A DNA stretch of 42,707 bases from Asterionella formosa (taxonomy: Eukaryota): positions 1-42,707 of the forward strand of contig NKIB01014536.1 in assembly GCA_002256025.1 (NCBI GenBank). Direction: 5' to 3'. Each line of letters starts with the position of its first letter. Positions within the stretch are counted from its first letter, which is position 1. Below, piece by piece: positions 2,848 to 41,039 of this stretch. Under the pieces are notes generated by a model. That model saw only the letters and a program-made list of their open reading frames with translations, had not been told where the DNA came from and did not search any database. Both the position numbers and the translations under genes were made by a program.

Positions 2848-3734
2848 TACCGGTACATCGGTAGAAGACGATATCATTGCCAGGGAGTAACAGGTACCAG
2901 GTACCAGGTAATCTCCTTGTTTTATGTAGCTACAGGTTTACTGGTTGTCTACCGGTATTCTACTTGCTCCGTCGGCATAAACGTATATGTACATGAATTT
3001 CCAAACATAGTCTAGGAAAAGTACCCGTTGTCGATTCAGCAGGCAGAGCCATCTTTTCCAATCCCATGCATGATCAATGTTGGATAGCCAACCCCTCCTC
3101 CTCGCTCATGATGGCACACGCTAAGTAACACCGCCTCAGAACCAGGTAGACTACCGGTACCGGTATTTGAGCTGCTGTAGTATGTACCTGCAAGTTGCGG
3201 TCATTTTGCTTAAATAAACAATTTAATATGGGATAAAGATAGCTAAAGTTTTGGTTTCAGCACAATTACCGGTACCGCACCAAGCAACTTGCTGGTCCAT
3301 GTGGTACGCATCGTAATTTTTACCGGCTCCTCTTGATCACATCCTGTGGTGTTTCGTCTGTTGTTATGTGTGGTACCAGGTAGTTGTTCATCAAATATCT
3401 AGGTACTTTTTACTTTTAATTACCAGACTACCGGTGCTCCGGGGGTTGCTTTCTATGGACACATGAATACCACCACTGTTTGTCGGTAACAAACAAGTTA
3501 AAAAATATTTTAGATCATTTGGAACAGGAGAGTGCTAGATGATGACAAACCATTCCGTGTAACATCACCTTTCTGTGTTTTCTTCTTCTGCATATCATGA
3601 ATTTTTTTCTCTTTCCTGCATTGCTAACAATTCGCAAGCGTTAGGGTTGCGGACGATTTTGAGACACCCGCACGTTTCAACCACCAAAATTAAAGCAACT
3701 GTTTCTCAATGAATTAGCTACATGACTACCGGTA
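2848..3734. repeat. Cluster of TA-CC(W)GG-TA motifs (putative transposon excision footprints)
   Basis: TACCGGTA at 2848, 2950, 3267 and 3727; TACCAGGTACCAGGTA 2895-2910; TACCGGTACCGGTA 3152-3165; TACCAGGTA 3374. Confidence 0.7.
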
Positions 3735-3735
3735 G

Positions 3736-5660: not shown

Positions 5661-6442
5661 ATGAACAAAAGAGTCATTTTGAAAATTTGAATGGATTATT
5701 AATCAACATTACTTAATCAAATATAGAATCAAACAAAATTTCGTTTGACCTACAGATTACTGTAGAGTAGCAATTGTCAAATCTGTTTGTAACTTCATCC
5801 AGCATGGAGAATTTCGTTATTTTCGACATGGTCAAGGTGCAGACAGCATGATGCAGGATTCTCCAGCCACGCACAAGAACTATACTTTTGCGTTTTATAG
5901 ACAGAAAGAAATCGCAACATCTGAGCAAAATAATTATATACTAGCTTCTAAAGGTCTACCTTGGATACAGGGTGATGGGTGACAGAAAAATCATTAAGGG
6001 TTCCACCCCTGGAGTAACCGGCACCTAGGTGATTGACATGTCCAAACTTGGTAGCCATCATGCCAGAAGAAAGAAACTAAAAGAAGAAAGTAAGGGATGA
6101 GGGCCAGCCGATGTAAATTAAAACAACAGAAGAAGTGTTGACATGATGGGCAATTGAAATTCTGGATTCCACTCGTTGGTGCATGCTAGATACCGGTAGT
6201 GGTATGTGGTATGCATATTTACTATCTTCATACCGGTAGTTTATTATCATGCCGCTGTTACGGCGGAGTAATATACCAACCTGTAAATGACACAGGTATT
6301 CATTCATTAATAAAAGATTCCAAGTACTCGTACCAGATGGCTCATGGCAGCTTCACCGCCACGACATCATGTTGAGGAAAGTCAAATTGATTTTGAAGAC
6401 GAACCGACAACCTAGTTAGTAAAGGAGGTTTTGCACAGGACG

Positions 6443-8391: not shown

Positions 8392-8663
8392 GGTGATGAA
8401 GAATGTTGCAACAAGGTTGTGTGTGCAACAAAATCTGTTTTTGGGGTCTTACGTATGGTTCCTTGTATTTCGCTTCATTGGTTAAACTACAACTTCTTGA
8501 ATACGTATATTACCGGTATATGATATTCAAATGTACATATATCATATGAAGCACACAGCCATTTGATTGTTCGTTGCTGGCTGGCGTAAGCAAGAATCAT
8601 GTGCTTGTTTGGCTGGTGCTCATAAGACAAATGATTCTCCCTCCATGGTTTTATGACCCTGGG

Positions 8664-12050: not shown

Positions 12051-12051
12051 T

Positions 12052-16871: not shown

Positions 16872-16991
16872 TATAAATAATAGTGATAATATTGTTCACA
16901 TGCATACTAGTCAAGATATTAGAAGGTTTTCACAAACTAAAATGTCCTGAGGAATGATGAGATTGCATGGCTGATCCAGATGGTCCGTCCA

Positions 16992-19455: not shown

Positions 19456-19666
19456 TCCATATCACAAATCATATTATAGTGATGTACATATCAACGCATC
19501 CGTATACTTAGATCCTATACACCGAATAATACTATCATAGAAACTGTTGGCTTTTACTGTTTTCATTAAAAGTCGAATTTATATATAAGTAACATAATTA
19601 TGATTTTTTTCTGTGATGTATCGATAACACTTGCATACATATTTTATCGTATTTTATTGTCATTGC

Positions 19667-20120
19667 AGAAGACTACGTTGAGTGTCTGCAAGGATGGGCC
19701 AAGACCATCGAGTACCACGACAGCGGCACCGTGGCAGCAAGAAATTACAAACTGGTGCCCCTCAAGGATGAGGTCGGAAACGGGCGTAGCATTGAGGAGC
19801 GAAAGGAAATCGCGCGTGAACGCACCCTCGCAATCGCTTTGATTCGCCGTGCTGACCCCACCAGCCAGGTATGGCACCCTCATCACTAACCTCCTATCAA
19901 ACCAGTATGCAATGGGAAATGACCAGTACCCCACCGATTTTCTGTCCGCCCAAAACCTGCTCTTCAACTGCAGAACTCCAACGAATACCAATGCCAGGAT
20001 GGATACACCATGCGCCCAGCCGACTGACTGGAAGCATTGAGGCCAGTGCGATGACCACGTTTGCACAACGCGGCGCAGTTGCAGGCAACAATAAAGTGGT
20101 AGACTACATGACGGCATCAC
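19667..20120 (+). pseudogene. Copia (CoDi-type) gag C-terminal part, degenerate
   Basis: EDYVECLQGWAKTIEYH...RIARERTLAIALIRRADP.RYGTLITNLLSNQYAMGNDQYPTDFLSAQNLL. Same strand and family as the gag start at 9417. Confidence 0.75.
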
Positions 20121-20249
20121 CTGTTAATACTCTCAATCAAATTTTATAGTACGTTAAATCTAAACATAAAATCGCACTTGTGCCTAGTCGACACAGCTGG
20201 AATAATCTAGGGGTGTCTCAAGCAAACTCTTGGTCTTCGTCCCTCCATT

Positions 20250-21400
20250 TGTTCGAATCGCTGTGTCAGGCGAAGCCAAGCTCCGTCTCCCAGAGGTGAT
20301 TGATCACCCTCATCCCATGCTCTTATAGACATGTCAACTGTTTGAATCCATAGCATCTTTTGGAGCAGAGTATGTCTTTGTTTTCTGACATTACATGGTA
20401 GCAGGAACAGTGATTGTTCAATGAATCGCAGCTACCTTTGGCTTGTCTGTGTATAACAGAGATATCGCCTGATCAAGCTCTTGGGTCAACCTCTTATCCT
20501 TCTCCTCATCGGAGATGCCGTACACCAATGAATTTCGAGTAGTCCAGCACGCAATCCCAAAATTCCACAAACCCTCAATCAATTGAATTGTTCATTGTTC
20601 GTCTAATTCCGGATCGTTGTGGAGAGCTCGTGCCCTTATATATAGTGCATTAGCTTTTCCCCAAAGAATGCTGATGCGTCCCCTCACTGCTTGATCCCAA
20701 CCTATATCCTGTTGGTTTAAGAATGCCTCAAAGGTAGCCTGAGCAATTGCAGCATCCTCTGGCGCCGGGGCAAATTCAACTAAATCAAAGAGTTGCATCA
20801 ATGAAATAAAGGCCAAGCCTGCTCATTTGCAATGGCATGCATGGTCACCCTTGAGTTGGCGCGGTGGCAGGGATTTGCCACAAAAATGCAGCATACCCTA
20901 TTCCTCAAAAGTGGATCATCTATCATGAACCCTGCGAATTATTGAATAGCAACAGTCTATCAGTAGGTAGATGTAATTCTGAGACAACAGCAGCAAGTAG
21001 ACACACACTCACCATTCAACTGTATTCTTGCAGAGTTCTATTATTGGAATCGAGGTAGCTGCTGGCACCACGTTCTAAAGTTTCGCATAGTAACAAAGTG
21101 TTGTTAAATAGTTCAGTAGAAATACAGCAGCAGCCATCATGACAAACACGCCAAGGCACACTAACAATTCATGATTTGCGGAGCCCTGTTATATGATATT
21201 AACACAGAATCAAATAACGACAATACTCAATCCTGATTTCATCCGAATGCTCCTGCATTGAAAGGTTTTGCTGCAATGTCAATTGAATTTATAGGAAGAT
21301 TAGTGTGAGTTATCAGTAGTGTTGCTCATATAGTAGCCGTCATCTTAGCGCAGTAATCTTACCTGAACAATTTTCATTCTGGACCTCATTGTACCTGTTG
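20250..21400 (-). mobile_element. Non-LTR (LINE) retrotransposon 3' ORF remnant
   Basis: QQDIGWDQAVRGRISILWG followed by LWNFGIACWTTRNSLVYG, i.e. the Q-x2-IGW-x5-GR-x4-W and W-x2-RN motifs at the C-terminus of diatom LINE ORFs. Ends are approximate. Confidence 0.65.
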
Positions 21401-21842
21401 CCAAAAACAATGTGTGAGCTGACAAGACATACTACTAGCATTTAGATACACAACAAAAACATGTTAGTCTAGCTGCTAAAGAGCCAGTAGGGGGTTGATT
21501 GTTGGCCGCATTGCTTGCTTACTTTTTCACCATGCTTATTGTTGTGTTTGTGGACCCTGCTGCATGGCAAAACTCCTGGCGTGGCCTGGATTCTCTCGTT
21601 GTACCATAACACGGTACATTCTACCAGAAAACACTGGCACAGTCTTGCTAAATGTTTCGTCTGGTCCAAATTCTGTATCTACAAGCGTAAATTGTTAGAA
21701 TAGCATATCATTGTTAATCCTACTAGCTGACTATCATTGTGCCTTTTATGATATATATTTTATGTGTATGTACATCAGCCAGTACGGCAGACTCTCCTTG
21801 ATTATCATTCAATCATGCAATTAAGTGATAGGAGGTAACAAG

Positions 21843-21992
21843 CATAATATAAAACACCTGTTGACACAATCACAACAATACCATATGCCACTGGACACAG
21901 AGAAACTATTTACCAAACATAATATAAAACACCTGTTGACACAATCATAACGATACCATTTGCCGCCGGACACAGAGAAACTATCAACCAAA
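21843..21992 (+). repeat. 75-bp tandem duplication (2 copies)
   Basis: cataatataaaacacctgttgacacaatca...ggacacagagaaactat at 21843 and 21918. Confidence 0.9.
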
Positions 21993-22246
21993 TAATATTC
22001 TACTATTGTCTGGCTGCTCTATGAATTTATTTCATACCCTGTTGGATATACTGCTCAAGGCAATACACGGCCGCCCAAGGTGGTCTCATGCCTGCGAGTA
22101 CACATGTGTACGACGAGAAGGCATGTAGCCACCGAGAAGGGTATTGCTGAGGCAATTCACAAACTAGCTATCGTCGCACCATTCGCTTACCTACTGACCA
22201 CTCATCGAGTGTAAATGTCAATTTTAGCTCACTATAGCCCATCATA

Positions 22247-22345
22247 TAAAATATATTTCGTATATTTCCTATCTTCACATCGAAATTTGCAATGGGTCCG
22301 ATATTGCGCATCATTAAAATATATTTTGTATATTTCCTATCTTTG
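22247..22345 (+). repeat. Short direct repeat (aaaatatattt.gtatatttcctatctt, 2 copies)
   Basis: Two ~28-bp copies about 68 bp apart. Confidence 0.7.
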
Positions 22346-22415
22346 AATTTTGGCATTACAATTTGTAGCAATTGCCCCTCGGTTGTCCAGCCCTGGGATT
22401 GCCGAAATTGGCAAG

Positions 22416-23667
22416 GGGTCTACTTAAGGAAACCATTTAATTTACTCTACAGATTTTTATAATTTATTTCTAGAATTCACCTCGTTTTTGTTCGTCTCCT
22501 GAAAAGTGGACTCCGGCAATTCACCTTTCACCATGCCGATCGTCGTCCATCATTACCGGTTTGAAGCGAAATCAGTTCAGTGATGACGCCAATAGCTATT
22601 CGTTGTCTAACGGATGCGGTTGGTTGTTGGATTGCTTGTCTTCTCGAGGGATTCATGTAGTCGCATCGTCCAAATTTCGTCGGACGAGCGATGATATCGA
22701 TACATCTGATGTTGGTGGCAAGTTTTTGCTCCGGTCATGCATGTGATCATGCTTAACGGATATTCTACTGGTAGTCATCTAGCCTTTGCTTCCATGGTCC
22801 GTTTTGATCGCTTCCATCGTCGTTTGTCATTCCACACTGTCGTTTTGTTTCGATTGTATCTATCTACATAAGAGCCAATGTATATATCGATAACTACTCT
22901 TTGACGACATACTGTTGTTGATTGTATCTGTTGATGTGTATAGTTGTTTACCATGATGTCAATATTGCCGTCAAGCAATGCTTTTCTTGTACTAACGCAC
23001 TTTGCTACATTATACTACGAGTTTGTATCACAAGCTACATAAATACTCAGCTAGAGAGAGTCAATAGTGCTGGTGCAGTGTGGCGATCACGCTTGCTCAG
23101 AATGGAATGATCAGGGTTGCTTGTTTGGTGGCCGGAGGAATGATGACTGTGGCGAAAATACTGCAACTGGTGTCAGCCAGGCTACTACAGCGATGCTTGC
23201 AGCAACCACACCATTTACACTACATAACGATGCAGGTCTAAATTGGGTTCAGCATTTTTTCTTCTTCTTTCGGTCTTCGATTGTGTGGTGATGGAAAGTC
23301 AAGCAATGTTGCCTGTTTAAGTACTACAATGATTCACAATGCATGCGTCTCCATTGAAACTCCTATTTTTTACTTCATTTCTAACCCAAAACAATTTTTT
23401 CTATTTCTTATTTGATGCAACTTATTACATCGCATGATTTCATAGTTTGGTTGCTCCAAACATCATATTCAATTTTCGTTGATGTTGCATGTTGTTACAA
23501 TCATTCTCGTGTGTTTTACGCTTGTTGTACCATCTCCATGCATATTACTGTTATTCTGGTTGTCATGCTAAAAATCGGCAATTTTAATGCCAAAAAATTC
23601 GATGTGCCCCATATTGCCCCAAAATAAAAATTACTTAAAGCCTAAAAATTACTTAGAAGTTGTACCC
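22416..23667. mobile_element. Possible old non-autonomous MULE-like element
   Basis: Left end GGGTCTACTTAAG versus right-end reverse complement GGGTACAACTTCTAAG; flanks aattggcaag / gaatggcaag resemble a degraded 9-10 bp TSD. Confidence 0.3.
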
Positions 23668-23715
23668 GAATGGCAAGACGATAGCTGGAGCGGGAATTGC
23701 TGGTAGCAGCCAGTG

Positions 23716-24290
23716 TGTTAAATCCATACTAGGTTTAAGCTCTTGCACATACCTACAGCATACGTATTGGTAACATGTATCTCCACTATACTGCGCACGC
23801 CTGTTAACGATAGAATGACTCCACCAGAGGTAAATTGTAATAATCCTCTGCTACTCCCCTTCATTACAGCTGTTAACCAAGGTATGTGTGCCACAAGATT
23901 ACCCAACAAGGTTGCTGTGGAATCAATCATAAAATTTGAGCAAATATCAAGAATTTTCTCATCAATTCACATAATAGGTTACTGCTGTAGTGCAATAATC
24001 TCCCCTTTCTGCTATTCTGCTGCCATGGGACATATCTCCCCTTTCTGTGATCCTCTGAGCATCTGTGTAGGCTAGATCCACCATTGGATGAGGATATATC
24101 CCCCCCATTTGAGGAGTTGGCAAGCAAGGGGTCGGCGATGCTTGAGGGATGGGCAGATATGGTGGGGTAGCAATCAAGGAAGGTGGGTGGGAGATGTGGA
24201 GGCTGGCCATGAGACAGGAAGCAAAGCGATGGAAAGGATGGTAATGCCAGGTGTGGGAGGAGAGAATGCATGCCCCTTCTGCTTGTAAGA
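23716..24290 (-). mobile_element. Possible 3' end of a Copia element (RNase H tail, PPT, 3' LTR)
   Basis: Minus strand: ...FHRFASCLM, then polypurine AGAAAGGGGAGA (23999-24010, with a duplicate 36 bp upstream), then TATTG...TTAACA (23997-23716) as a candidate LTR. Confidence 0.35.
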
Positions 24291-24334
24291 CTCTTATGGG
24301 CACATTGAGCGCCCCTGGTTAAACTGAAAGAATA

Positions 24335-25156
24335 CATTTTTGCATAAAAGTCTCGGAAAATGCATAAAACGTAAGTCAGGGGAGTTCATGATCATTTCCG
24401 CAATGCGAAGTTTTTATTCGCTTAAAGAACAAGCAGTCTATTGTTGAATGGCTTATTAAAGTATGTCTATAGTAAGCTGTCAAATGACCTCAAGATTCCA
24501 TAGAAATATGAACCACGACAATTAGTGTGTACATGAAAGTCACTACAAAACTGACGTTGAGGAATTTGTTGCATCTTGAAATGTTGTTCCCTCTCCAAGA
24601 ATACTGTCGCTCAGGTTTTCTCATCTATTTCTACAAATATAGAAAACCTTATCTAGTCAAAGTTATCAAGCTAATCATCGCGGACTCAAAACTGTCGCTA
24701 CTTCGGTCATATCTTCAAAACTTAGCAAATGACGACCAATAACAACTTTCAGCGCCGATTTTATTTTGTTGTTGTCAATACTTACTGGAAGTACGTACCC
24801 AGTAGTATGTATGCCAAGGATATGTACCGGTAATATATAATGCTATATACGGAATGTACAAAGTAGATACATACAAGGTCTGTTGCACATATGATGTGTT
24901 CCATCTCGAAAACGTAAGTACATCTGATTCATTATGCATCCGATTTCTCGACAAAATGTGCAGTAGTACAATCATATTTTGATTTTTCGATTTTCAATAT
25001 TCTAAGTAAAAAGAATCATGGAAAACTTAGTTATGAAAAGTTTCTATCAATGATAGAAATTCATATTGATTTGCTACAAATTTAGTCAAAAAAAGTAATC
25101 CCGAGTTCCCCCGACTAACTCATTATGCATTTTCGGACATTTTTATGCAAAAAGTG
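24335..25156. mobile_element. Non-autonomous Tc1/mariner-type element (MITE), 822 bp, ~60-bp TIRs, TA TSD
   Basis: Left TA|CATTTTTGCATAAAAGTCTCGGAAAATGCATAAAACGTAAGTCAGGGGAG matches right-end reverse complement TA|CACTTTTTGCATAAAAATGTCCGAAAATGCATAATGAGTTAGTCGGGGGAA. No transposase ORF inside. Confidence 0.85.
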
Positions 25157-26984: not shown

Positions 26985-27475
26985 GACATTGATCTTGTGT
27001 ACATCGCATACTTTTCAATTAAGCAGCTGGATAGAAAATCAGTGGAAAAAATTGAGGTTTCCATTTTCGTGGTTGCATCACTGATTCTGTGATGAAATTT
27101 GCATCATCAGTCAACAAGTAGGCTAAACATACTGATGCCCAATTTGATAACTACACATTTCTGAGCAAATTGACATTCGACATGAAGGCATTGATCTCGT
27201 TTACATCGAATAAATTACTAGATAGAAATTGGCTTCAAATTGGTGGAGAAATATAGATCGACATTTTGGTTGCTAGTACATCACTGATCAGCAGTCCACA
27301 AGCATCGAAAATTTTACATATACTGATACCCAAATTGATCAAAATACGTTTGTTCTGAGTATATCAAGTAACATTCGACATGAAAGCATTGATCTCATGT
27401 AAATTGAATACTATACTAGATAGAAATCGGCTTCAAATTGACGGAGAAATATGGATTGGAATTTTGGTTGCGACA
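26985..27475 (+). repeat. Degenerate ~198-bp tandem repeat (about 2.5 copies)
   Basis: acattcgacatgaa.gcattgatctc...actagatagaaat.ggcttcaaattg..ggagaaatat at 27173 and 27371; a more diverged copy at ~26985. Confidence 0.8.
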
Positions 27476-27608
27476 TACTATCGCTAAAATTGAAAAAGCT
27501 TGTAGTCCAAAATGTAAGATTACCCCACCGTTATGGTGGTCTAAGCAGTTCATAGGAGTGGTCTTCAGCAGTTTTTGACTGTTAACTGCTACTCCGTACC
27601 TGGTACCA

Positions 27609-28760
27609 TTACTATTGACAATAGATTCTATACTGGTACATAAAACGCGTAGATTTCCTACATGGTTTGATTGCTGCTTAATAATCACAATAGTCTGGAA
27701 GGAAAAGCACACCCATGATACACCAGTGATCAGACCAAAAAACCCCTTGGTGATACAAAAAAAACCAAACCGCCATTTTTGTATCATATTTCGGAGATGA
27801 TACACCAATGACGACCAATGACAGACTGATAAGAACGGCCCTTATCATTCCGAATTTGCTGTATCATTTTGGGGTTGTGGGCAAAAAGTGACGGTTGGTA
27901 TCAAAACTAGTTATCAGCAACAGTAACTTGATGGTATCAATTTTGTATCAATGATACAAAATTGATACCGTTTTTTGCCCCCTCCAAAAATGTTATCAGT
28001 GATACTGACGTTTTCATGCAGGTATCTTTTCCGTTGTCACTGACAAGATAACCGAAAATACGCCCTCTGCAGGGCAGTACTTTTATTGACATCTATATAA
28101 TATATACATTAAAATTATTATGGTGTGTGCATCAAAGAAGCACCATACAATTATTATAGCGGCCGTGTGTGGCAATGTTCAGCCGCAACACCAAAAAACG
28201 ACAACCACTGAGTCGAGAATTGAACAGATTGAGTCATGTACATAGAGATATACCCGGTATCTAATTACAGATACCTGGCACTGATATTCGGGAACTCATA
28301 ACAAAGTACTAGGCGATAGAATACGAAAATGATCACGTGTCTACGACGTATACCAGCTGTGCAAATACTTTGGTTAGCTTTGGCTGTCACTACCGGTACC
28401 AGGTACCCGGTACTATTACTCGTCCAGCACGTACTAGGCAATAGAATATGAAAATGATCACGTGACTACGACAAATACCTGTGCAAATACTATTGACTAT
28501 AGTAATCCATATACATAATTCGCGTACCGGTAGATTTCTTGCATGGTTTGAGGACTGCTTTGGTACCAGTACGTAGTCTGGAAGGAAAAGCACATGTTTG
28601 TAGCCAGCCCGTAACCGTTGAATTTTCGTGATATTTTTTGGTGAAACAATTTTATTTTTATTTTTGTGGAGAATGGATTTTTTCGGTTTAAATTGAGTAG
28701 CCGTTGCATGATACGTTTTCAAAAAATATGATACCAAATCGAAAATGATAAGAACGCACC
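27609..28760 (+). repeat. Dispersed direct duplications (27609-27712 vs 28489-28594; 28306-28370 vs 28431-28491)
   Basis: Shared tactattgac...cgcgta..gattt...catggtttga...tagtctggaaggaaaagcac, and gtactaggc.atagaata.gaaaatgatcacgtg.ctacgac...tgtgcaaatact. Confidence 0.85.
27715..28000. repeat. Foldback-like region rich in GATAC/GTATC, with a perfect 18-bp inverted repeat
   Basis: GGTATCAATTTTGTATCA-A-TGATACAAAATTGATACC (27933-27969); outer imperfect arms at ~27860-27904 and ~27962-27998; GATACAAAAA...TTTTTGTATC (27752-27785). Confidence 0.8.
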
Positions 28761-30900
28761 TCAGTTTTTAGAGCTCTTATTTACCGGTACCGGTAGTTGA
28801 TATCATATATAGTATCATCCATGTATCATACATTTAACAAAGCTCATTCACATCAACATTATCGGCCCACACGACTTGCTTGCAAAATGACTTTCCACTG
28901 TGTAGACATCATACCATTATATTCAGGTACCAGGTACCAGGTACTCACTCATTGCTTGTCAGTTCCTGGATCCGACAAGAATCCGAACAACATCCAACAA
29001 GACTGACTTTTGGCCAAGAAGGGCCGGTGTGTTACGGAATTCACTATAGTTCCGCTACGAGGAAAGAGTACCTGGTACTTTACAAGCAGCATACCGGTAC
29101 TATGTACGAGGTGTTGTTTATTGAAACTGTTTGAAAGTGTTCGTTTGTATGCAATTCCTACCACCTTGTCCTCCCTTGTACCAGGTACCCGTGGTGAATA
29201 CGAGAACATCGTAATGTAATTCTTCGGTTGATATACTGGTAGGTGGTTCGTAATAGCTATATCTTAATTAAGCAATCGGCATGTTCTATCTTTTTATCCA
29301 TTATGTTTATATTTATATGAATTACCGGTACCTGGTACTCTGCAACCGACAGGTTTCCAAGGCGACTCCGACAACATGCCAACAAGACTAACTTTTCCAG
29401 TTAGATGGTATACTCCATACCCGAATGTAAGAAATATGTAGGACTTGCTGACTGGCGGTGCGCTTAGCTGGTGTACCTGGCTGGTCCTCGTTATTAACAG
29501 GTACCAGGTACCAGGTACCCTGGAACTATTTCATGTTGCTCTGCTGTCACCTTCACAGACCACCACCAACCAAAACTTGGTGTTGAAGATCAAGCACTCC
29601 CTGGACCTGGTATCAGCGTACGGTATGTACAACTAGAATGCCATACCGTACATATGTTTATACCTGCTGAACTACATAGGTACGACTTAGTCTGTAACAA
29701 ATTCGATTTATACATTTGTAAAGGTGTGTCTGTATGGTTGAGACGTTGAGACAGTCGTTTATGACTGTCAGCCTACATATAGATCTGTATGTACCGGTAC
29801 CTGGTATCAAAGTTCAAATCATCTCACAGTCACTGCTCCTTTAACCAGAAATACCGGTTTGTGAGTACCCAGGTACAACTGCTTACCTGGCCGGTCCTAC
29901 CGCTAGCGTCTACCGGCACATGTTATTCAACGGGACCTCGTACCAGGTACTGTAGCTGATACCCTACGATGGCAGTTGTGTTCTGCACTGCCTACATACA
30001 TCATCACTTACTTGCGGTACCTGGTAGTCTACATCTGAGAAAAAGGCGGTCAGTTGCAATTAAATGTCGTATGTAGGTGCACTGAAGAGTATCGAATTTA
30101 TGGCGAAATTCTACAGGGTATTTTCTTATGTACTCCGTACTCCCCAGGTAGCCGGTACCTGGTACCAGAGCTGTGCTGAAGGCCTCAGCAACTGTCATGG
30201 TAAACATTGGATTAAATTAATTTCCCTCTTGCTGCCAGTGAATAAATTGTGAAACGGTAGGCTCTCTGTCCGGTCCACCCTTGGTCATTCCTGGGTGCGT
30301 CATAGCACCAGTACTCGTACATACCCACCGATATGTAGTCTTATTGAATGCCGACAGCTTACATCCATACTTTTATATCAGTGAGATATCTGATAGTACT
30401 CTGTACTTACAATTGACTACCAGTGCAAGCAGCCTTCCAAATTGACTACCGGTAGGGCTAGATTTGGTACTCCCGGGGTACCTGGTAATCTACTGACTAG
30501 AGAGTGCCGGTGGGTACCCCTGGTACCTGGTACTGTCTGCACGCCGCGATCACATTCAGCAGCTCGTCTTTGCTCCATGTAATGCCTCATACAGTAGGGT
30601 ACCAGGTACCAGGTTCCTAGCCTACGTCAAGCAACTTCCTCGACAACTCGGCGCACCTCAAACTTCAGCACCTCCACCTCAAGTTGTATATACATAGAGA
30701 TATTGTACCAGGTAGACTACCTGGTACCTGGTACTTCTCCGACCATGATATACCGGTAGAATACCAGGTAGTCTACGAGGTACGGCTATGATGGTGCTCC
30801 TTTGGTGCTACCTGGTACCAGGTGCCAGATACCAGGTACCAGGGTACCTGGTACTGTATATATTCCGGTTGTTGTTATTAGCCGGAACAAATACCGGTAC
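28250..30900. repeat. Dense field of TA-CC(N)GG-TA motifs and short stacked arrays
   Basis: Examples: TACCGGTACCAGGTACCCGGTA 28391-28412; TACCGGTACCGGTA 28782-28795; 28928-28943; 29502-29517; 30809-30858. Confidence 0.85.
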
Positions 30901-31269
30901 TTAATTCACTATTTAATTAACCTATCTAGGTACATCTTGGTGCAGCTACTAAGAATGAAGCGTTGAAATAGCGGTTATTTAGTCATGTCGCTCGATACTT
31001 TTGGTCGTTTGGGAACTGTTCTGGAATCTTGTAGAGCACTATCAAATACTTGAAGTACCCCGGCGAGATGCCAATATTGTGGGTCTAATTTGGCGTTAAT
31101 TCCTTTACCAGACTCTTTTGATTTTTACTATCATTGAAATTGAAAAAAGACCTTACTGCGCAAAAGACTCGACTTGCGCCCAACAAAATTGGTATCCCGG
31201 TTGCATCTTTCACATTTCAGTGAAACAAAATAAGAAGACACAATTTCGCAAACTCGAACAACTTACAAC

Positions 31270-33614
31270 ATGACTCGATTCAGTGCAATCGTACTGGCTA
31301 TAGTCGTCTCTGTCGTCGCCTCTGCGAAGCCGCGATCAGGCAAGAGGAACCTTCGTTATGAACCGCTCCGCTTCCTACAAGACAGCGTCGGAGGTCAATG
31401 TCAATGTTATGGGCCAAAGGTGGGCCGTTTATTGACAGAAATAGATAATGAACCTGCTGTCGAAGCTGAAGTAAACCAGAGAAAACTATGGGCTGGAAAG
31501 GGCGATATGGACTACGCCAACTCCAAACCCAAACCAACCGCCAAGAATGGAATCTCGAAGCCTGACTGTTGCATAGCGGTCTGCGGAGGCAGTCCTGTTG
31601 CTCCTTATCCATCTCCGGTCGTTCCTTATGCAGCTCCTGCTGATTTTTATGTCCCAGCACCTTCTGGTGGCAATGGCGGAAACGGCGGCAATGGTGGAAA
31701 CGGCGGCAATGGTGGAAACGGCGGCAATGGTGGAAACGGCGGCAATGGAGGCAGCGGTGGTGGTGGGTACAGAGAACTGGGTTTCTATGTTACAAATCCT
31801 GAATGTACTTGGGAAAGTTGTGGATGCCCACCAGTGCCTGTTTACCCTGCTCCTTACCCGGCTCCTTACAGTCCCCCTTACCCGGCTCCTTACAGTCCCC
31901 CTTACCCGGCTCCTTACAGTCCCCCTTACCCGGCTCCTTACAGTCCCCCTTACCCGGCTCCAACAATGCCAAAGACGAATCCACCAGTCGTACCTCCCAC
32001 TCCTCCGCCCACGTTTTCTCCTGTCACTCCTCCTCCAGTGCAAATTAAGACGAATGCACCTCTTGCACCTACCGCTGCTCCTACTGGCGTTTGCATCACC
32101 ACGGTAAGTAGCTCTTGCATGCAATCCACGAAATGGATATGTGTTTTGCACTTCACCGTTTTTTTAACACTTGTCTGAATTTTTTTATATAGGTCTCAAT
32201 TACGTGCATGGGCCCAGGCGGCGAAGAGTGCGCGATGATCCCACCACCTCAAACCACAGATGACTGCATGGTCGATGTCACCTACACTTACACCATTACC
32301 AACACCGGAGCTGAAGTGATGAGTCTTGTCGACCTCAAGTCTACTCAGAACGGCGTGGAAACTTCGTTGGACCTTGGCGGAAAAACCGAGCTTCAACCTG
32401 GTGAATCCATCACCGTCACCGAGGTTGTGGCGATTGATCTTTGCGTTGGCACACCAAATTTGACCACGGTCACCGTAACGGGTCAGCCACCAATGGGACA
32501 GATCTGTACAGGAACCGACACTTACGAGTTCACTCCTGGTACCAAGGCACCAAGCACTCCATCACCAGTTACCCCAGCACCAGTTACTCCTCCTCCGGTC
32601 CAAATTAAGACGAATGCACCTCTTGCACCTACCGCTGCTCCTACTGGCGTTTGCATCACCACGGTAAGTAGCTCTTGCATGCAATCCACGAAATGGATAT
32701 ATGTGTTTTGCACTTCACCGTTTTTTAACACTTGTCTGAATTTTTTTATATAGGTCTCAATTACGTGCATGGGCCCAGGCGGCGAAGAGTGCGCGATGAT
32801 CCCACCACCTCAAACCACAGATGACTGCATGGTCGATGTCACCTACACTTACACCATTACCAACACCGGAGCTGAAGTGATGAGTCTTGTCGACCTCAAG
32901 TCTACTCAGAACGGCGTGGAAACTTCGTTGGACCTTGGCGGAAAAACCGAGCTTCAACCTGGTGAATCCATCACCGTCACCGAGGTTGTGGCGATTGATC
33001 TTTGCGTTGGCACACCAAATTTGACCACGGTCACCGTAACGGGTCAGCCACCAATGGGACAGATCTGTACTGGAACCGACACTTACGAGTTCACTCCTGG
33101 TACCAAGGCACCAAGCACTCCATCACCAGTTACCCCAGCACCAGTTACTCCTCCTCCGGTCCAAATTAAGACGAATGCACCTACTGTACCTCCGACTCCT
33201 CCTCCTACTCCAGCACCAGTGAGTAGTTCGCCAACACCGTGCGTTGACGGTGAATCAATCAACACCTGTGTCTGCAATAATGGCGAGGAAATAAATGTTT
33301 CGTTCCAAATCTGTAATCCACAACCCGAGGATTGGGTCGGTATTTACCCTTGCTTGCCTGAAAACACAACTACCTACAACTACCATCCCACGATTTGGCT
33401 TTGGACATGTTACAGCGCGCCATGTTCAGACGGGAACTTGGCGTTCCAGAACGATTTGACGTTTAACAGCACTCTACCATCATACACGAATTATGGTCCA
33501 CATACATGGCCTCTGCCTCCTGGATGCTATGTAACCATCCTCAACCGAAATTACGGATTGAGTCCCCCTCCATATGACATTGTCATTGAAGGTGAACCTT
33601 TCTACATCGTGTAG
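31270..33614 (+). CDS. Secreted Pro/Gly/Cys-rich cell-wall or adhesion-type protein, 721 aa; join(31270..32103,32193..32663,32754..33614)
   Basis: Signal peptide MTRFSAIVLAIVVSVVASA. Two phase-0 GT-AG introns (32104-32192, 32664-32753) join three ORFs in frame (...CITT|VSITCMGP). Features: RXL motifs, (GGN)n, (PYPAPYSP)n, two identical beta-rich CMVDVTYTYTITNTG domains, and a C-terminal DWVGIY...WPLPPG.Y (SKICH/Ig-like) domain. Confidence 0.92.
31666..31767 (+). repeat. Coding 18-bp/9-bp repeat encoding (GGN)n
   Basis: ggcggcaatggtggaaac repeated in tandem. Confidence 0.95.
31852..31962 (+). repeat. Coding 24-bp repeat encoding PYPAPYSP (~4.5 copies)
   Basis: ccttacccggctccttacagtccc at 31852, 31876, 31900 and 31924, partial at 31948. 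Confidence 0.95.
32026..33182 (+). repeat. Near-perfect 560/561-bp intron+exon tandem duplication
   Basis: The copies differ by two small indels in the intron and a few synonymous changes (e.g. ACA at 32510 vs ACT at 33071). Confidence 0.95.
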
Positions 33615-34272
33615 TTCTACGATGCTAAGATATTGGGATCTGTGTGAAAAAAGTATTGCCTTGTCTATCCTGTCTTCTACAAGGTATCAATTAAGATACA
33701 AGGCGTTGATTCTAAAAGATAAAATATATATATGCATGTTAGTATGACCTTTTTGTTGTCAAATTGAACTCTTGAGAGAGTCGACTTTGTTCCCATCTAC
33801 CGCACGATAGTTTTATGCATTTTGGAACTGTTAGTCTGCACATAAAATTATCCACCTAGAAGCGAACACAGATCTGTTACGTCATTTCATTATTTCAGCT
33901 GAATTTTTTTTCCAGGTGAAATGATATGAGCACACAAAATCTTGTGAGTAATTTTGTTCTCCAAAATATATTAGCTGTAAGTAAATATATTTCTGAGACG
34001 CAGGCCTCATGATTCCTCCTATCTAATTTTTGAGTAATTTTTGTTTCACCCAAAGCCTCTTTTCTCTATCAAAACTTAGATTTATTTAGATAGCAGCAGG
34101 ACGAGCGAGTGATAGCAAGCTCTCCTGTCAAATGCTTACCTGTAGCCACGTGTACCTACCTACTACTTGCAGTGAATCTTCAATAGAAGTCAATGCACAA
34201 CTAAATCTATTGATTGCTCACAGCAGCCCCTCATCTTGTACTTGTACACCAGAAAAGCTTCTCTGATTTGAG

Positions 34273-35056
34273 ATGAATCCATCGAAGAAGAATAATTGCA
34301 ATGAAGACAGTAGTGATGAAGAGTATGTGGTGAGTGAATTCTCATACATCTTTACATCTTCATCCAATGGTCATAGCAATGCCACAGTCAGTATTGGTGA
34401 TGCACAGAGAATGAGAGAATCCTTTCGCACACATTTCAATGCTGTAGCTTTTGGTTTTTTCAATGAAAACGCGGGATCAGGCGCAACTCCAGTTGATCAT
34501 GTGGAAACCGGAACAACTGGAGCAACAAGGAATGAAAAGGCGGGCATAGGTACAACTCCAGTTGATCATGCGGAAACAGGAACAACTGGAGCAATAAGGA
34601 ATGAAAAGGCAACAGTAGCAGGAAAAACTCCAAAAGCGGAAGCCGGAACAACAACTGCAACATGGGCTGCAAAGAGAATCGAAAATGCTAAATCAACAAC
34701 AAAGAAAAAGACTGCAAGAATTATAGCGGGAACAAAGGAAAAGATCACACAAGGAACAGGAAAAGCAAGGTCATGTGACATAACTGATGAGACATACAAT
34801 GAAATTGCATATAACACAACAGGAACAGGAAAAACTAGATCATGTGACATGACTGATGAGAAATACAATAAAATTGTGTATATTATTGAAAACTCATGCT
34901 TTGTGTTATCCTCAAGATAGCAAGTCAAAACGAAGGTGTAGGTGTCTGAAAGAATGCACAAATGCTTGTGGATGCTTTAAGGAAAAGCATGGTTCTTGCA
35001 GTGTGTCTTGCAAATGTTCTACAAAATGTATGAAAAAATTCAATAAACAATTATAA
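34273..35056 (+). pseudogene. Internally deleted transposase-like gene (Ginger/KRBA2-like termini) with a C-terminal CXC-like Cys cluster
   Basis: N-terminal MRESFR...TDEKYNKIV and, in another frame, RCRCLKECTNACGCFKEKHGSCSVSCKCSTKC; no catalytic core. Internal 69-bp repeats (34462/34531/34600 and 34753/34822). Weak inverted similarity between ~33910-33960 and ~35065-35125. Confidence 0.4.
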
Positions 35057-35991
35057 GTAACCTTATGAGGTAAAATACTTTTTTATAAGATTTTTTGTCA
35101 TATTAAAATCTGGTGAAACAGCAGTGTATAGGAAACTGTGGTGAACAGAGCAATCAGTGTGTACTAGGTACTCCTGGTATTGCCTTATGCTACCATTGGT
35201 ATTATGCATACTAGTAGTACTAACAGTGTACGTACCATAGGCTTATTGGAACCACCCCTAGTACACCAGCCAGGGGTCAGGATGGTGATTTTCTTAGCTT
35301 AGAAAACAACTTTTATTAAAGTTAAAATACCTCTGAATTGCCTTGAAATTTTTATCCACGACTCCAAAGAGATGGTTGTGACAGTGGAGTTTATTCACAA
35401 AACAAGCAGCGCTCGTACATAGATACTGCGAGTTATTGCTTCAAATCTGATGAATAAAAGAACCCGGAAAACTAAATAAATAGTGCCGATTCTGCAGATT
35501 TCGCTAATAAATTCTGCTGATTTGGATTTCATCAGATATGACATAACAGATCGGTATCAATTCCTTATGCTCAGTCTGAGTACTGCTTTACATGTATGGG
35601 TTGTACCATAGCAGAGGAATGATGGAAATGATTGGATGAAGAAGATGAACATTTTCCTTTCTTCGAACCAACAGTCTTTGATGACAAGGATGAAGATTTA
35701 GCACTATCAGTACTTTCATGAAATGATGATTTTGGAAGCAATGGAACAGCAAAATTGAGAAGGTGAGGAACTTGGCACAACCATACCACTAGCTAAATGG
35801 TAGTAATATGTATAAGGTCGGCTTCCAAAAAGATTAACAAAGCCATCATGCCTTCCTGACTTTTTGTTGTTCCTGTATGCAATTTGGTAATGAAAGTTAA
35901 TGCACCCTATTGCCATAGAAAATTCGACAGAGGACAGAGCATCATACATCTTTGGTTAGCAACTGTCTGTCCCCATTTGTTCCCAATAAGG

Positions 35992-37062
35992 ATTTTGTGA
36001 AAAGGCAAGAGTTGTGGTTTAATTGTGAATATGTTGATAGAACTTAGTAGCCCTGAGACTTATGAACATTATGTCGTTTATGAAGGTAACAACAAGGTAC
36101 TATATGTTAGGATGATCAAGGCACTATATGGCATGCATGTTAAAGTCATCATTGTTGTATTACAAGAAATTTCGGAAGTATATTGAGTCAGTTGGATTCA
36201 AGGTCAATCCAAAGGATCCATGCGTTGCAAATCGCACTGTTAATGGAAAACAACACACAGCTACTTGGCACATTGACGATTCAAAATCTATTCATGTGGA
36301 TAGCAAGAAAGTGAATGATCAAATTTGGAATGGCTCAAAAAGAAATACGCTTCTGACGAAATTGGTGAAGTAAAGGTCATGTGTGGAAATAAGCATTATT
36401 ATTTGGGCATGACACTAGTAGATTACTCTCTTCCAGGAGTGTAGAGGGTGGATGTGACTAGCTAAATAGTATGTGAAATCACTGATTGATGATTTCCCAG
36501 ATAAGCTTGAAGGTATCGGAAAATTTCCATGGACAAATAAACTGTTCACTGTTGATATGAAATCGAAGAAGTTTGAATATGAGAAAGCAAAAATATTTCA
36601 TACTTTTGTTATGAAAGGAATGCTTCTTGCTTTTGTAAGCAAGGAAGACAGGGCATTCAACCAGTAACTAGTAGGTTTCTGGCAAACCAAACAACCAAGC
36701 CAAATGAAGGCGATTGGGTAAAATTTGTCAAGATCAAAAATTTCTTGAAAGCAACTCAGAATGAGGCTGCATCTATGAGTGCTGATAACACTCAGAGTAT
36801 TAAATGGTACATAGATGTGGCATTTGCATTTGCAGTCCACAAGGAGTTTAAAAGTCACACAGGCGTTACATTGTCATTTGGACAAGGAATTATTTGTTCT
36901 GTGTCTATGAAACAGAAAGCGAACATGAGAGTTCGACTGAAGCAGAATTAGTTGGTGTTGACAACATTTTATCAAAGATGTTGTGGACAAAACTATTTAT
37001 TGAAGCACATGGACACAAAGTGAATATGAATGTCATTTACTGTGACAACACTAGGGCAATGG
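35992..37062 (+). pseudogene. Copia reverse transcriptase / RNase H remnant (CoDi-type)
   Basis: KVLYVRMIKALYG.LKSSLLYYKKF...GFKVNP.DPCVAN...WHIDD; HYYLGM; WYIDVAFA.HKEFKSHTG; KQK.N..SSTEAELVGVD; IYCDNT. Many stops and frameshifts. Confidence 0.92.
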
Positions 37063-37580
37063 GAAAGCAAGTTCAAGAAAATGCACATCCTCTGTATGTT
37101 CTACAAAGTTCTGTCTTCCCGAAATCGCTGCAAGCCAATCAAATCATGCTGTGATTTTTGTGCATTATGCATTACGAACAAATTCCCTTCACACAATTGG
37201 GGGGGGTGCATTGTCAAGAAAACCAAGGCATGCAATGCATCCTTTTGCCGTATCGATACAAACAACCAAATCGTAGTTAAACATTAGCTTGTTTCACTTA
37301 TTTTCTTGCATTCTATCATGGTATTGTTATAGTCGTTGTTGGAGTGATTGCGCAGCTACTGTGACAATGTCAAATCCGTTCAGAGCATCGTCGTTTTGAA
37401 TTGTGCATTCATAAACTTGATGAAAAAATGTGCCATTTGCGTCTCTAATTTTAGATTTTAATATTTTTTATTAGAATAATTCTTTTACGATTGTGTTTTC
37501 TATGTTGTGTATGATATATGGACCAAATCGAAAAGCGTCATTCTCAAGAAATCTCTCATTTTTCACATCACGGAAATAAT

Positions 37581-38079
37581 TGTCATGTTAATACATCTTA
37601 GAAAAATGTGTGCTACCCTCTAGAGCTAATGAAATATACTTAGGCTTAATATTGGTATTATATGGGAAATATCTTCATTGTCCTGGACCCTTGAGTAAAA
37701 TCAGTCTAGAGATTCAGTCACGGCAGTGTAAATTGGGGGAGATCCAGGACAATGAAGTACCAGTATACAGTATCTGTATTCGTAAGACCAATAGTTCTTG
37801 AATCTAATGATAAATGTTAATCAACCTGTCATGTTAATAAATCTTAGAAAAATGTGTGCTACGCTAGCACCCTGTAGAGCTAATGAAATATCATACTTAG
37901 GTTTAATACTGTTAGTATTTGGGAAATATCTTCATTGCCAGGACCCCCTTTAGTAACATCAATCAAGAAATTCAGTCACGGCAGTGTGCTTTGGGGGATC
38001 CAGGACAATGAAGAATATGGTATCTGTATTTGGAAGACCGATAGTTTTTGAATCTAGTAATGATAAATGTGTATCAACC
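37581..38079 (+). repeat. Two tandem ~250-bp units, each with an internal hairpin
   Basis: Copies at 37581-37826 and 37827-38079. Copy 1 has a perfect 15-bp inverted repeat CTTCATTGTCCTGGA (37673-37687) / TCCAGGACAATGAAG (37743-37757), nearly conserved in copy 2. Confidence 0.9.
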
Positions 38080-38633
38080 TATGATCAAAGAATGTGAGGT
38101 CAACATGGGTTTATCTATAAATGAATGATCTGGCAAATGCAAACGGCATGTGGAGAATAGTTCGTTTGATTATTCAAACCGATCAAACCTGCCTAACAAC
38201 TAGCTTAGTAGCTCACAATAAGAGTATAGCAACGAAAGAGAAGCGAACATCACTGTCTATCGCCTTCATTTTTCTAATGATAGATCTATCTAGAAAAGTT
38301 CATACTTCAACAATGCCTCACATGAAGTTCCAACACTTGTGTCATGGGAAGCTGTCTGGTAGGCTACTGTTAACAATTGATGAATACATCGCCTCACACC
38401 TGTTTCGCTAGAGTGATGACAAGTTCCGTTCTTACGAGTAATTCATCGTGGAAAATATCCATTCCGCCTCAATCACCATGAGGCATAATTATTTATTCTT
38501 CACGAGTCCTATTCTCATACATAACGATATCGCAACACTTGACCTCTACAATTCCCGAACTACTTTCTATATATATATATATGGTACTCCCGATACCCAG
38601 AATGTCGAATATACTGATGTAGCTTATAGTAAC

Positions 38634-39761
38634 CTAATAAAACGTATAGTTCCTAGACTTAAGGAACGAAGTCATGGCTGCTCCACAGTTTCCATCACCG
38701 ACAACTGTGTTGTTGAAAGGGCGACTTCCGAGCGCGGTTGGCTTGACCACGCCCGCCGCAACCATGGAATAATAATGATCCCTTAGCCCAATAACCGCCC
38801 CACTTTCATCTTTGCAGGACTCGAGACTAACGCCGTTGAAAGAGTGTGTCAGCGTAGCGTTAGCAGTAATACTCCATTTGAACGCGTACGATTCGTCAAT
38901 CTTGATTTCGGAGCAGTCAGCCTTATCAATGACTGGAGCATCATCCGCACAGGAACACATGGGAGCTCCTGCAATTTCACTGGTAAAATTATTTTCCAGG
39001 AGACCGTGATTAACAGCCAGCTGGAAGAGCGCATTGCCTCGGAAGCGATACGACTCAAGGTATCGTTCGTCCCCAACAGTAAAGCCGTGGCAGTTGACGC
39101 TGCCCTCAGATGCGGCCGGATATAAATAGAAGCCGCCACTGACTTGTCCAGCATACGGGGCGCGGTTGTCGATGTAACATACATCAGTGTTGGTTTTCGA
39201 TTCCGGCACATCAGTCCAACAGCAGATGACAGCCTTCGAGGAACACCTTTTGAAGTTTTGGGAAGTTCCAGGCCACTCCAAGACCTGCGTTTTGACTTTA
39301 ATGGCGGAAGCAGAGAGAATAGCTTTGTGCGACTCAGTTGGACTGTTGTCATCGGTGTTGAGCTCAGTACCCCCGAGAAAGAACTGGTAGTCGTCTTGAG
39401 TCGTCCTGATTGGACTCTCGGTGAAGACACCATCAAAGAGGTCTCGCATGGTTACGCGGTTATTCTTCGCGTACTCCACTTGAGTCTTATTGCACAAGTT
39501 CTGAATATCATCAGCAACTAGGGAGAGATTCCGAAAGAGTCTTCTTGTCTCAGTCAGCCATGACCTACATTTGCTGGCGGTGCTGTTGGGCAATGCCAAC
39601 ATGGCATTCGTAATCGCCGCTTCGAAGGAATACTTGTTGCAACTCGTGAGAGTGAGGTTAAAATCGCCATTGCTATCAACGAAACATGATGCAGGTATGG
39701 TCTGAGCAAGACTGGCCGAGGCCATGGAGGCGATTAGGAGGAGAGAGCGTATAAGATTCAT
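38634..39761 (-). CDS. Secreted Cys-rich protein of unknown function, 375 aa, intronless; paralog of 41040-42475
   Basis: Signal peptide MNLIRSLLLIASMASASLA from ATG 39761. Motifs NFKRC...CCW, NTDVCYID, EG..NCHGF, RFRGNALF, GAPMCSC.D.P...ADC, DESY.F. Confidence 0.9.
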   Translation of the reverse strand: MNLIRSLLLIASMASASLAQTIPASCFVDSNGDFNLTLTSCNKYSFEAAITNAMLALPNSTASKCRSWLTETRRLFRNLSLVADDIQNLCNKTQVEYAKNNRVTMRDLFDGVFTESPIRTTQDDYQFFLGGTELNTDDNSPTESHKAILSASAIKVKTQVLEWPGTSQNFKRCSSKAVICCWTDVPESKTNTDVCYIDNRAPYAGQVSGGFYLYPAASEGSVNCHGFTVGDERYLESYRFRGNALFQLAVNHGLLENNFTSEIAGAPMCSCADDAPVIDKADCSEIKIDESYAFKWSITANATLTHSFNGVSLESCKDESGAVIGLRDHYYSMVAAGVVKPTALGSRPFNNTVVGDGNCGAAMTSFLKSRNYTFY

Positions 39762-40001
39762 GTTTTTGTTGAAAAAGTTGGTTTTGTGAGCACATTCTGC
39801 TTTCATGGCGTTTCGGGAGAGATTTGTTCCGACAATACTCCAACCTCATGTCCTAGATAGTACCTGGTACCAGGTACCAGGTACCATCATCTAGTTGGTT
39901 CCAGTACCTTGAGGCGACTGTATGAATAGTCATACTATACTCTTTTGTAACGCGGAACTCTGTGCAGTCATTGCGGTCGGAATACTTAAACCTGGCTGCA
40001 A

Positions 40002-40270
40002 CGATGTTTCACGAAAGCTGTCTGATGTCGTAGTATTGAAATGTCTATTGCAATATTCTTGCTACCAGGGTACTGGTACTTTCTTACAGATAATCGAAAT
40101 GTGTTTCAGAAAAGACTCCCGAAACGAGTCATTATGAAATGTCGCTTTGTTGACGGCTTTCTATGTTTTTGTTTTTCAAATTCAATGTTTAGCCAACCGA
40201 CACGACTGCTGCGACGTGTATGTCGACATGTTTCAGAAAAGACTCTCTGAACGAGTCATTTTGAGATGTC
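40002..40270. repeat. Repeated ~43-bp motif in the divergent intergenic region
   Basis: tgtttcagaaaaGACTC.c.gaa(a)cGAGTCatt.tga.atgtc at ~40103 and ~40229, each with a GACTC/GAGTC dyad; a degenerate copy at ~40003. Confidence 0.7.
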
Positions 40271-41039
40271 TTGAATTACGGGTTATCGAAGTTGTTTTTG
40301 ATTTCGGCATACCGGTAGTAAATACCAATACCGGTACCAGGTACCTGCTTTACGTATTTTGTATATTTCCGGTACCAGGTACCAGGTACTGTACTGTATT
40401 TATTTTGCTGAAGCATGATCAAATAATAATATGATACTGATGTATGATGCTCAGTATTTCCAAGAGACATCAGATGCCGGTGCATGCGTTGCGACACAAA
40501 TGTGTTATTGAATTCACCAAGCCGACGCGACTCTTGCGACATGAGCATGTCGAATCGACAAAATCAGGAGTCATACATATTATGCATAAAACGGCCTCGA
40601 AATGCCTTTTCGTTCTATAAGTTGTTGGACCACGTATCAACGTACCAGGGTACCGGTTGATACAGTCTGAACTAGATCGTTCATTTTTGCATCAATTACC
40701 GTACCAGGTACCAGGTAATCATTCCTACCGGTATACCCTTGCTGGATTTTTGTGAGACATCGGACTCTATCATGTTTTCCCAACTAGAATGTCTGGTAAT
40801 AATTACGAATGTCTGTTCGAGTGTGATTGTTCCGAAAAGACCTGTATGCAGCGCGACTATTTACAGTCTCCATACCTTCGTTTACAAACCAGACCCGACC
40901 GACCTGGCATTTCCTTTCGCGCCTTCAACCTTTTCATTTCTTGATAAATCGTTTTTGATCCTGGCCTCTGACAAGCAACTCTCCCCCACTGGTCATAAAA
41001 TCAAAAAATTTACCATTGATATCTCCAAAACACGACAGC

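Follow-up and report, generated by a model that had tools for sequence, protein, structure and literature searches.

Short palindromic units of the form TA-CC(N)GG-TA are packed into the intergenic DNA of a 42,707-nucleotide stretch of the Asterionella formosa genome (contig NKIB01014536.1, positions 1 to 42,707; this whole stretch is referred to below as the window). Recurrent insertion of this constant short sequence, with duplication of a TA dinucleotide, is shown at one site by comparison of homologous copies, and all of the other sites are consistent with it. The best mechanism for these insertions, in our inference, is that the units are excision footprints of a TA-duplicating cut-and-paste transposon, an explanation that is given even chances here.

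Parsing of the window gave 59 units, and these form 44 arrays, of which 31 have one unit, 11 have two, and 2 have three. By core sequence there were 23 CCGG, 21 CCAGG, 13 CCTGG, and 2 CCCGG units, 57 of the 59 being CCGG or CCWGG. TACCGGTA was found 23 times where 0.21 occurrences were expected, and TACCNGGTA 36 times where 0.38 were expected; none of 100 dinucleotide shuffles of the window got to either count. The original prediction, made from the sequence alone, had described intergenic DNA rich in TA-CC(N)GG-TA, and with counts so far above the dinucleotide-shuffle background that description holds. The two arrays that it quoted are exact: TA-CCGG-TA-CCAGG-TA-CCCGG-TA at 28391-28412 and TA-CCTGG-TA-CCAGG-TA-CCAGG-TA at 39861-39883. 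TA was present on both sides of 23 of the 92 CCGG occurrences and 34 of the 107 CCWGG occurrences, while fourteen palindromes or quasi-palindromes taken as controls had only 0-4 such occurrences each. A general excess of palindromes was ruled out as the cause, since palindromes as a class were not enriched once the motif family was masked (observed/expected ratios of 0.98-1.26); the CC(N)GG motif family stands alone.

Among the 36 five-base cores, the middle base was A or T in 34 and G or C in 2 (P ~2e-6 versus base composition), with A and T at 21 and 13 (P = 0.23). The arrays are made up of whole units and are bounded by TA, and the sequences that flank them are mutually unrelated. The outer TA was followed by C in 43 of the 88 outward flanks, and 21 of the 88 begin with CC, which represents a degenerate neighbouring unit. 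With the flanks that start with CC removed, C followed TA in 22 of 67, near the 27% found for all TAs, which indicates that generic TAs are used and that the boundary of the unit is TA rather than GTAC. Perfect copies (CCGG or CCWGG) numbered 57, compared to about 19 one-mismatch copies in excess of expectation. The most frequent decayed form, TACTGGTA/TACCAGTA, occurred 9 times where 2.2 were expected and corresponds to a CpG-to-TpG change of CCGG; decay of the units looks neutral and is mainly of this CpG-to-TpG type. Elsewhere among TA-bounded sequences, window-wide counts were 4 versus 0.56 expected for TATCGATA, 4 versus 0.62 for ATAGCTAT, and, more weakly, 9 versus 3.6 for TAGWCTA, which often adjoins units (for example GGTA-GAC-TACC and GGTA-GTC-TAC). 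Spacers of the form TA-GAN-TA or TA-NTC-TA occur beside units as well. TATCGATA, ATAGCTAT, and TAGWCTA may be minor TA-bounded scar types, or may reflect a target-site preference.

There is virtually no chance that an artefact of assembly, adapters, or linkers accounts for the motif. GGTACC is common as a cloning site, and nothing else speaks for that explanation, which is refuted by the recurrence of the arrays in contigs from four independent studies and in translated paralogs (ENA, JGI, and NCBI records). The stretch was also found in contigs of three other studies at identities of about 99% or more, so it is not a product of one assembly.

The evidence for insertion comes from a pair of paralogous copies that both lie in the window and from the repeat family to which they belong. 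Copy A (27597-27711) and copy B (28476-28594) are 73% identical. Copy B reads GCG-TA-CCGG-TA-GATTT where copy A reads GCG-TA-GATTT, an exact 6-base difference at a TA, so that the unit at 28525..28532 has as its counterpart an empty site with a single TA at 27650..27651. Copy A itself carries a single TA-CCTGG-TA at 27597..27605. By contig and read mapping, positions 27444-29165 fall in bins of multi-copy depth, and 28179..28767 on the minus strand is a copy of a multi-copy non-coding repeat family whose spurious open reading frames (ORFs) are present in public protein collections. The bins that hold this copy had a summed contig depth in sequencing run X1 hundreds of times the single-copy level, the family ORFs have been deposited as 'proteins' (P0001-P0028 here) in ENA, JGI, and NCBI-derived collections, and homology between copies begins exactly at the residues LRVVLIIF, which places one end of the element near 28765.

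A spurious 115-amino-acid ORF that runs through copy B (28390-28737, minus strand) was used as the query. It matched 11 clusters of translated family members, a cluster look-up added 17 further family sequences, and the alignment over the tested part contained 17 members; the family comparisons that follow are protein-level readings of translated paralogs. At the place of the unit, RNLPVRELC is found in the window and in P0001, and the remaining 16 members all have RNL--RELC, or RNL--CKLC in the case of P0007. The upstream flanks differ among the 16 members lacking the unit, which indicates that they stand for several loci. P0001, the only member with the two extra residues, is 97% identical, and its C-terminal part corresponds to the window DNA in another frame, indicating that it comes from this very locus or from a copy made very recently. 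On this comparison, CCGGTA at 28525-28532 is a derived insertion (TA-CCGG-TA, 6 bp) at a TA without a neighbouring repeat. At this one clean test site, a duplicated TA encloses the bases left behind, and the homologous empty site has just one TA. The allelic states observed among the paralogs and family at this site are the empty TA and the scar; a full-element allele is not among them.

Other members of the family suggest that further units have come and gone. P0006 and P0021, which belong to one 90% cluster, show a 5-residue difference at about window position 28265-28290, and the corresponding 15 nucleotides equal an 8-nucleotide plus a 7-nucleotide unit. P0019 carries a frame-shifting, TA-bounded extra of 5 nucleotides that reads TA-CGG-TA. 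P0020 and P0002 represent one array in two frames (PGTRVPGTCN and PGYQVPVIR), by which the unit sequence is fixed in back-translation; P0020 and P0017 are JGI/IMG sequences. Seven members have DYRY and six have DYQY or DYQC, a split that fits decay of TAC-CGG-TAC to TAC-CAG-TAC in a putative unit without a counterpart in the window copy. At the array at 28391-28412, the family reads VIVECTGSD (12 members) or VIVECNGSD (P0017), so that no more than one unit would fit there, versus the three of the window, and P0001 has 18 nucleotides where the window has 11, or 7 more. Loose ends at 27709, 36135, and elsewhere were considered as insertions and were rejected as paralog divergence, and the tandem duplication at 40.1-40.4 kb was too degraded for unit gain to be read. 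A 21-mer of the repeat family gave 2 chance matches in the viral collection and 0 matches in the prokaryote collection, and the ORFs at 28949-29209 (minus) and 28880-29134 (plus), used as single-copy allele probes, had no match in the protein collection.

Differences between strains point in the same direction in part of the window. The locus is present in X1, an 'algae metagenome' run, where its single-copy parts have a word depth of about 900-fold, and it recurs in freshwater metagenomes from several other studies. Over 28727-31056, contigs from X4, X6, and X7 had gap totals of 6, 7, 6, 7, 8, and 21 bases, with 0-8 substitutions per piece, and these gap totals are unit sizes; the gaps are known by size only, none of the unit-size gaps being among the best 12 of 73 indel rows. 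Pieces from the strains over other parts of the window had 0-3 gap bases. JGI metagenomes were scanned for a unique 23-mer and for the RNase PH protein, and no contig of the locus or of the RNase PH gene came up.

Three stretches of the window, all gene-proximal and intergenic, are dense in units. In the main field (28251..30899), 34 units make up 26 arrays, of which 19 are singles (one of them at 29092), 6 are doubles, and 1 is a triple (the mixed CCGG, CCAGG, CCCGG array at 28391..28412); the density is 0.132 units per TA over 28250-30900, and the part from 29166 to 30887 is mostly single copy. A TA-CCCAGG-TA also lies in this field, at about 29868-29877. A cluster of 9 units in 7 arrays (2848..3734; 0.106 units per TA over 2658-3735) lies between an ORF at 1263-2657 (minus) and the 3' end of a WD40 gene. 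Another, of 11 units in 6 arrays (39861..40733; 0.126 units per TA over 39807-41015), lies between divergent ORFs at 38634-39806 (minus) and 41016-41774 (plus) and includes the mixed triple at 39861-39883. Some units sit 55-250 bp upstream of ORF starts: two single TA-CCGG-TA units at 6191..6238 are about 200-250 bp upstream of the ORF of an exosome RNase PH subunit, and one at 8511..8518 is 120 bp upstream of an FHA-RING ORF. An isolated TA-CCGG-TA at 24825..24832 is found within a TA-flanked element resembling a miniature inverted-repeat transposable element (MITE). None of the 59 units was in a long ORF (12.3 kb of long ORF checked).

The arrays have more shared TAs than independent insertion would give. 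Simulated random insertion into the TAs of the three dense stretches produced about 6.4 shared-TA junctions compared to the 15 observed, about 2.3 times as many (per-stretch P = 0.21, 0.048, and 0.005), and 9 of the 15 neighbour pairs were of identical type where 33% was expected (P = 0.028), the other 6 being of different type. Density by itself accounts for some of the stacking, while the excess, together with the identical neighbours, indicates that duplication of units or a preference for scars already in place adds to independent events. The statement of the original prediction that arrays grow only one event at a time was therefore too strong. Its argument that slippage does not explain their growth stands as far as the mixed pairs and the singletons go, and gives way at the identical neighbours, to which slippage may contribute.

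Whether ordinary microsatellites, (GGTACC)n or (GGTACCW)n, expanded by replication slippage and varied by point mutation could account for the whole pattern was weighed on this evidence. Besides the excess of junctions and of identical neighbours, such an origin would accommodate the 11 heptamer arrays reported by Tandem Repeats Finder (TRF) and the 15-nucleotide difference between P0006 and P0021, which sits between direct repeats and could be slippage, and similar heptamer arrays are carried by bacteria. However, 31 of the 44 arrays consist of one unit each and sit at unrelated sites, which slippage alone cannot bring about, and the insertion at 28525 took place at a TA without a nearby repeat. 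Units of 6 and 7 bp are mixed in 6 of the 15 neighbour pairs, only the presence and identity of the middle base vary, and the arrays are TA-bounded runs of whole units with no arbitrary repeat phase at the start. Units did not come only from an adjacent identical copy, and the runs were not all homogeneous. Slippage as the sole cause is refuted by the singletons and by the one unit that arose de novo, and is judged very improbable as the full explanation; as a contributor it is supported. A search of viral and prokaryote collections with an 18-mer array pattern gave 2 and more than 107 loci, respectively, all unrelated coding or microsatellite repeats. Among these are heptanucleotide GTACCNG-type arrays on contigs of bacterial metagenome-assembled genomes (L029, L033, L060, L064, and L086, labelled Chitinophaga, Pseudobdellovibrionaceae, and others). 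These look non-coding, are unrelated to the window, and drift at several positions, and they serve as a contrast for what slippage produces.

According to the footprint model, each event would add CC(N)GG and a second TA at a pre-existing TA, and the source would be a Tc1/mariner/pogo-like element, with ends that begin CC and end GG, that repeatedly inserts and excises. The canonical CCGG scar would consist of two terminal bases from each end, left by a 2-nucleotide stagger (TA-CC-GG-TA), in the manner of the Tc1 scar. CCWGG could then be made by the addition of one untemplated A on either strand, giving CCAGG or CCTGG, or alternatively by CCAGG-type overhangs paired across a central A:A mismatch, as happens with Sleeping Beauty, which would need a 5-nucleotide stagger here; we know of no Tc1/mariner enzyme with that stagger. 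Either route would yield the strong preference for A or T in the middle position with A roughly equal to T. As each scar would supply a new TA, dense fields would chain by chance, with extra chaining from slippage duplication or from a transposase preference for scars that resemble its ends, and the scars would then decay neutrally, chiefly by CpG-to-TpG change. Tc1 leaves the scar TA-CA-TG-TA and Sleeping Beauty TA-C(A/T)G-TA, and to our knowledge Tc1/mariner-type excision is the only established process that gives constant bases between duplicated TAs at unrelated sites. Mariner and Stowaway excision sites are reported to retain a TA duplication and short pieces of the element ends (PMC4561436).

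A number of observations weigh against transposon footprints as the source. There were 59 near-uniform scars and no element in the window: the inverted-repeat scan of all 42.7 kb found no TA-flanked element with CC...GG ends, the candidate pairs being all motif-driven, just as the original prediction had said of this stretch, and the retained bases do not match the ends of any TA-targeting element resident there. Termini of the CAGTGA type likewise formed no consistent family in the window. No Tc1/mariner/pogo transposase was recognized in the 16 ORFs or in 51 of the 88 stop-to-stop frames of at least 90 amino acids. TACATGTA, the scar predicted for the MITE-like element with CA...TG ends, was not enriched (2 versus 1.1 expected), nor were scars of a 3-nucleotide stagger (TACCATGGTA, 0; TACCATA, 4 versus 5.4 expected). 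No unit was found at the 781 TAs of 11641-24000 or the 365 TAs of 33615-38633, both in repeat-rich DNA, and with these 1,146 sites empty the model needs either strong regional targeting or young repeats. The cluster at 39.8-41.0 kb, with 0-2 gap bases in the same three strains, was nearly gap-free, indicating that turnover is uneven and not uniformly high. The difference between family and window at the array at 28391, as read from the translated paralogs, is not explained by simple unit addition. In rice, Mariner insertions outnumber excisions by 2.6-2.8 to 1, and the footprints vary, a clean duplicated target being left by only 8 of 94 excisions (PMC4423477). The proposal of repeated transposition in the original prediction is upheld for discrete insertions at TA with TA duplication (28525-28532 and the whole-unit differences), while the CC...GG element and its transposase were not found in the window.

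Two further explanations dispense with a transposon. It is unlikely that a non-transposon process writes constant CC(N)GG plus TA at TA sites; candidates would be a site-specific nuclease or recombinase, belonging to the host or selfish, with fixed-palindrome repair, or copying of the unit and TA itself. Such a process would cover the same insertion evidence without an unseen element, and it fits both the uniformity of the units and their regional restriction. Restriction enzymes of the CCGG family read CCGG and CCNGG with one fold, the middle base being flipped out, and recognition of this kind would suit an optional middle base. No candidate is encoded in the window, among the same ORFs and frames, and repair by snap-back or hairpin copies local flanks, so that its inserts would be specific to the site rather than constant. 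We know of no such insertion mechanism in eukaryotes. The other explanation, an improbable one, is that TACC(N)GGTA serves as a palindromic cis-element kept by selection or biased conversion in gene-proximal DNA, such as a site bound by a protein dimer with 0 or 1 bp between half-sites. The absence of units from long ORFs and from the 1,146 repeat-rich TAs, the density of the three gene-proximal stretches, and the surplus of perfect over decayed copies would all be expected of a selected site; half-site spacing varies in bZIP sites, which offers a precedent. Selection on point mutations, however, gives no exact 6-bp TA insertions, and the occurrence of a unit within a dispersed repeat copy points to a mutational origin. 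A field of 34 sites in 2.65 kb that share TAs would also be an unusual architecture for binding sites, and the gain and loss of units between strains with just 0-8 substitutions per piece, with decay of a neutral CpG type, argue against strong constraint on the units. A rather unlikely variant of insertion is that a domesticated or very active TA-specific cut-and-paste machinery, or a mechanism as yet unrecognised, writes uniform palindromic scars of 4-5 bp into permissive gene-proximal DNA.

Among known repeats, HIP1 is a highly iterated 8-bp palindrome of cyanobacteria that is also found in coding DNA and is not known to originate by insertion. The units resemble it as a short palindrome that is strongly over-represented, but they are absent from ORFs, occur in 8- and 9-bp forms, and arise as TA insertions of 6-7 bp, so neither the spread through coding and non-coding DNA nor the lack of indels typical of HIP1 was seen here. 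The head-to-tail runs with a period of 6-7 and the whole-unit length differences are like bacterial GTACCNG-type microsatellites; unlike those, the units in the window are mostly single, are bounded by TA, have one variable middle base, and in the case shown arose de novo at a TA outside any repeat. What they share with Tc1/mariner and Stowaway MITE footprints is a few constant bases between TAs, a single TA at the empty site, a core that is palindromic, or so around a central A/T, and the use of unrelated TA sites. They differ from these footprints in being uniform, stacked, and as frequent as 0.13 per TA, in occurring as 59 scars with no donor or transposase in the window, and in having a CC core of 4-5 bases that would need a 2-nucleotide stagger plus A or an unreported 5-nucleotide stagger. 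In rice, as here, comparison of related genomes detects the excision sites, and the Mariner sites are imprecise and TA-targeted; in contrast to its excess of insertions and few clean excisions (8/94), the window shows only near-identical scars (PMC4423477). The published literature that was searched gave no account of the motif or of stacked, uniform, TA-bounded scars, which is not proof that there is none. The 25 best-ranked of 844 literature matches to the motif string were all primers or barcodes, and PMC5953449 was rejected as a precedent because 'footprints' is used loosely there.

The window is eukaryotic nuclear DNA. The protein cluster closest to its RNase PH subunit is most frequent in Bacillariophyta, which hints at a diatom without proving it. 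Its genes include those of the WD40 protein (3736-5175, minus), the exosome RNase PH subunit (6431-7285, plus), and the FHA-RING protein (7447-8391, minus). Fragments of copia-type retrotransposons were found at 1-693 and 10201-11640, as shown by a match to a gag domain (E 1e-12) and a weak one to an SH3-like domain of retroviral integrase. The MITE-like element at 24334-25156, the only TA-flanked element with terminal inverted repeats in the window, has inverted terminal arms of about 61 nucleotides that are 77% complementary, with TA on both sides; its termini are CA(C)TTTTTGCATAAAA, its ends are CA...TG, and it lies in multi-copy DNA. At 13300-17350 (plus), several ORFs follow one another on the same strand in DNA low in GC (36-38%) and free of CC(N)GG units, with a sub-threshold match to a Plavaka transposase at 13917-14285 (E 3.6e-4, 20.3 bits versus a cutoff of 26.3); this region may be a decayed large DNA transposon. 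At 31270-33614 there are three tandem ORFs from a 560-bp duplication, in blocks 95-100% identical, with internal repeats of 9, 12, 18, and 24 nucleotides that encode Gly/Asn-rich and Pro/Tyr-rich stretches and with weak DUF7507 matches in two of the three; these may be a family of genes for a repetitive secreted or wall protein. Scans of the window for RNA genes gave no tRNA and a single sub-threshold chance match to Rfam, within an array (23.2 bits versus a gathering score of 36).

If the units are transposon scars, they would represent a case undescribed in the literature searched, that of intergenic DNA with uniform and stacked excision footprints as a major component. The footprints would far outnumber their source elements, so that transposon history and target choice could be read from the genome, and they would provide hypervariable strain markers for a common freshwater alga as well as a mutational route that repeatedly places palindromes containing CpG and CCWGG beside promoters. 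Should a very active machinery be responsible instead, about one scar per 75 bp would have been written, faster than point mutation removes them, leaving a dense, strain-variable record of events in intergenic DNA and adding CpG and CCWGG sites near promoters; the scars would draw further events, making the arrays autocatalytic. If no element exists, the units would point to an unrecognised sequence-specific insertion process, which would be of greater importance.

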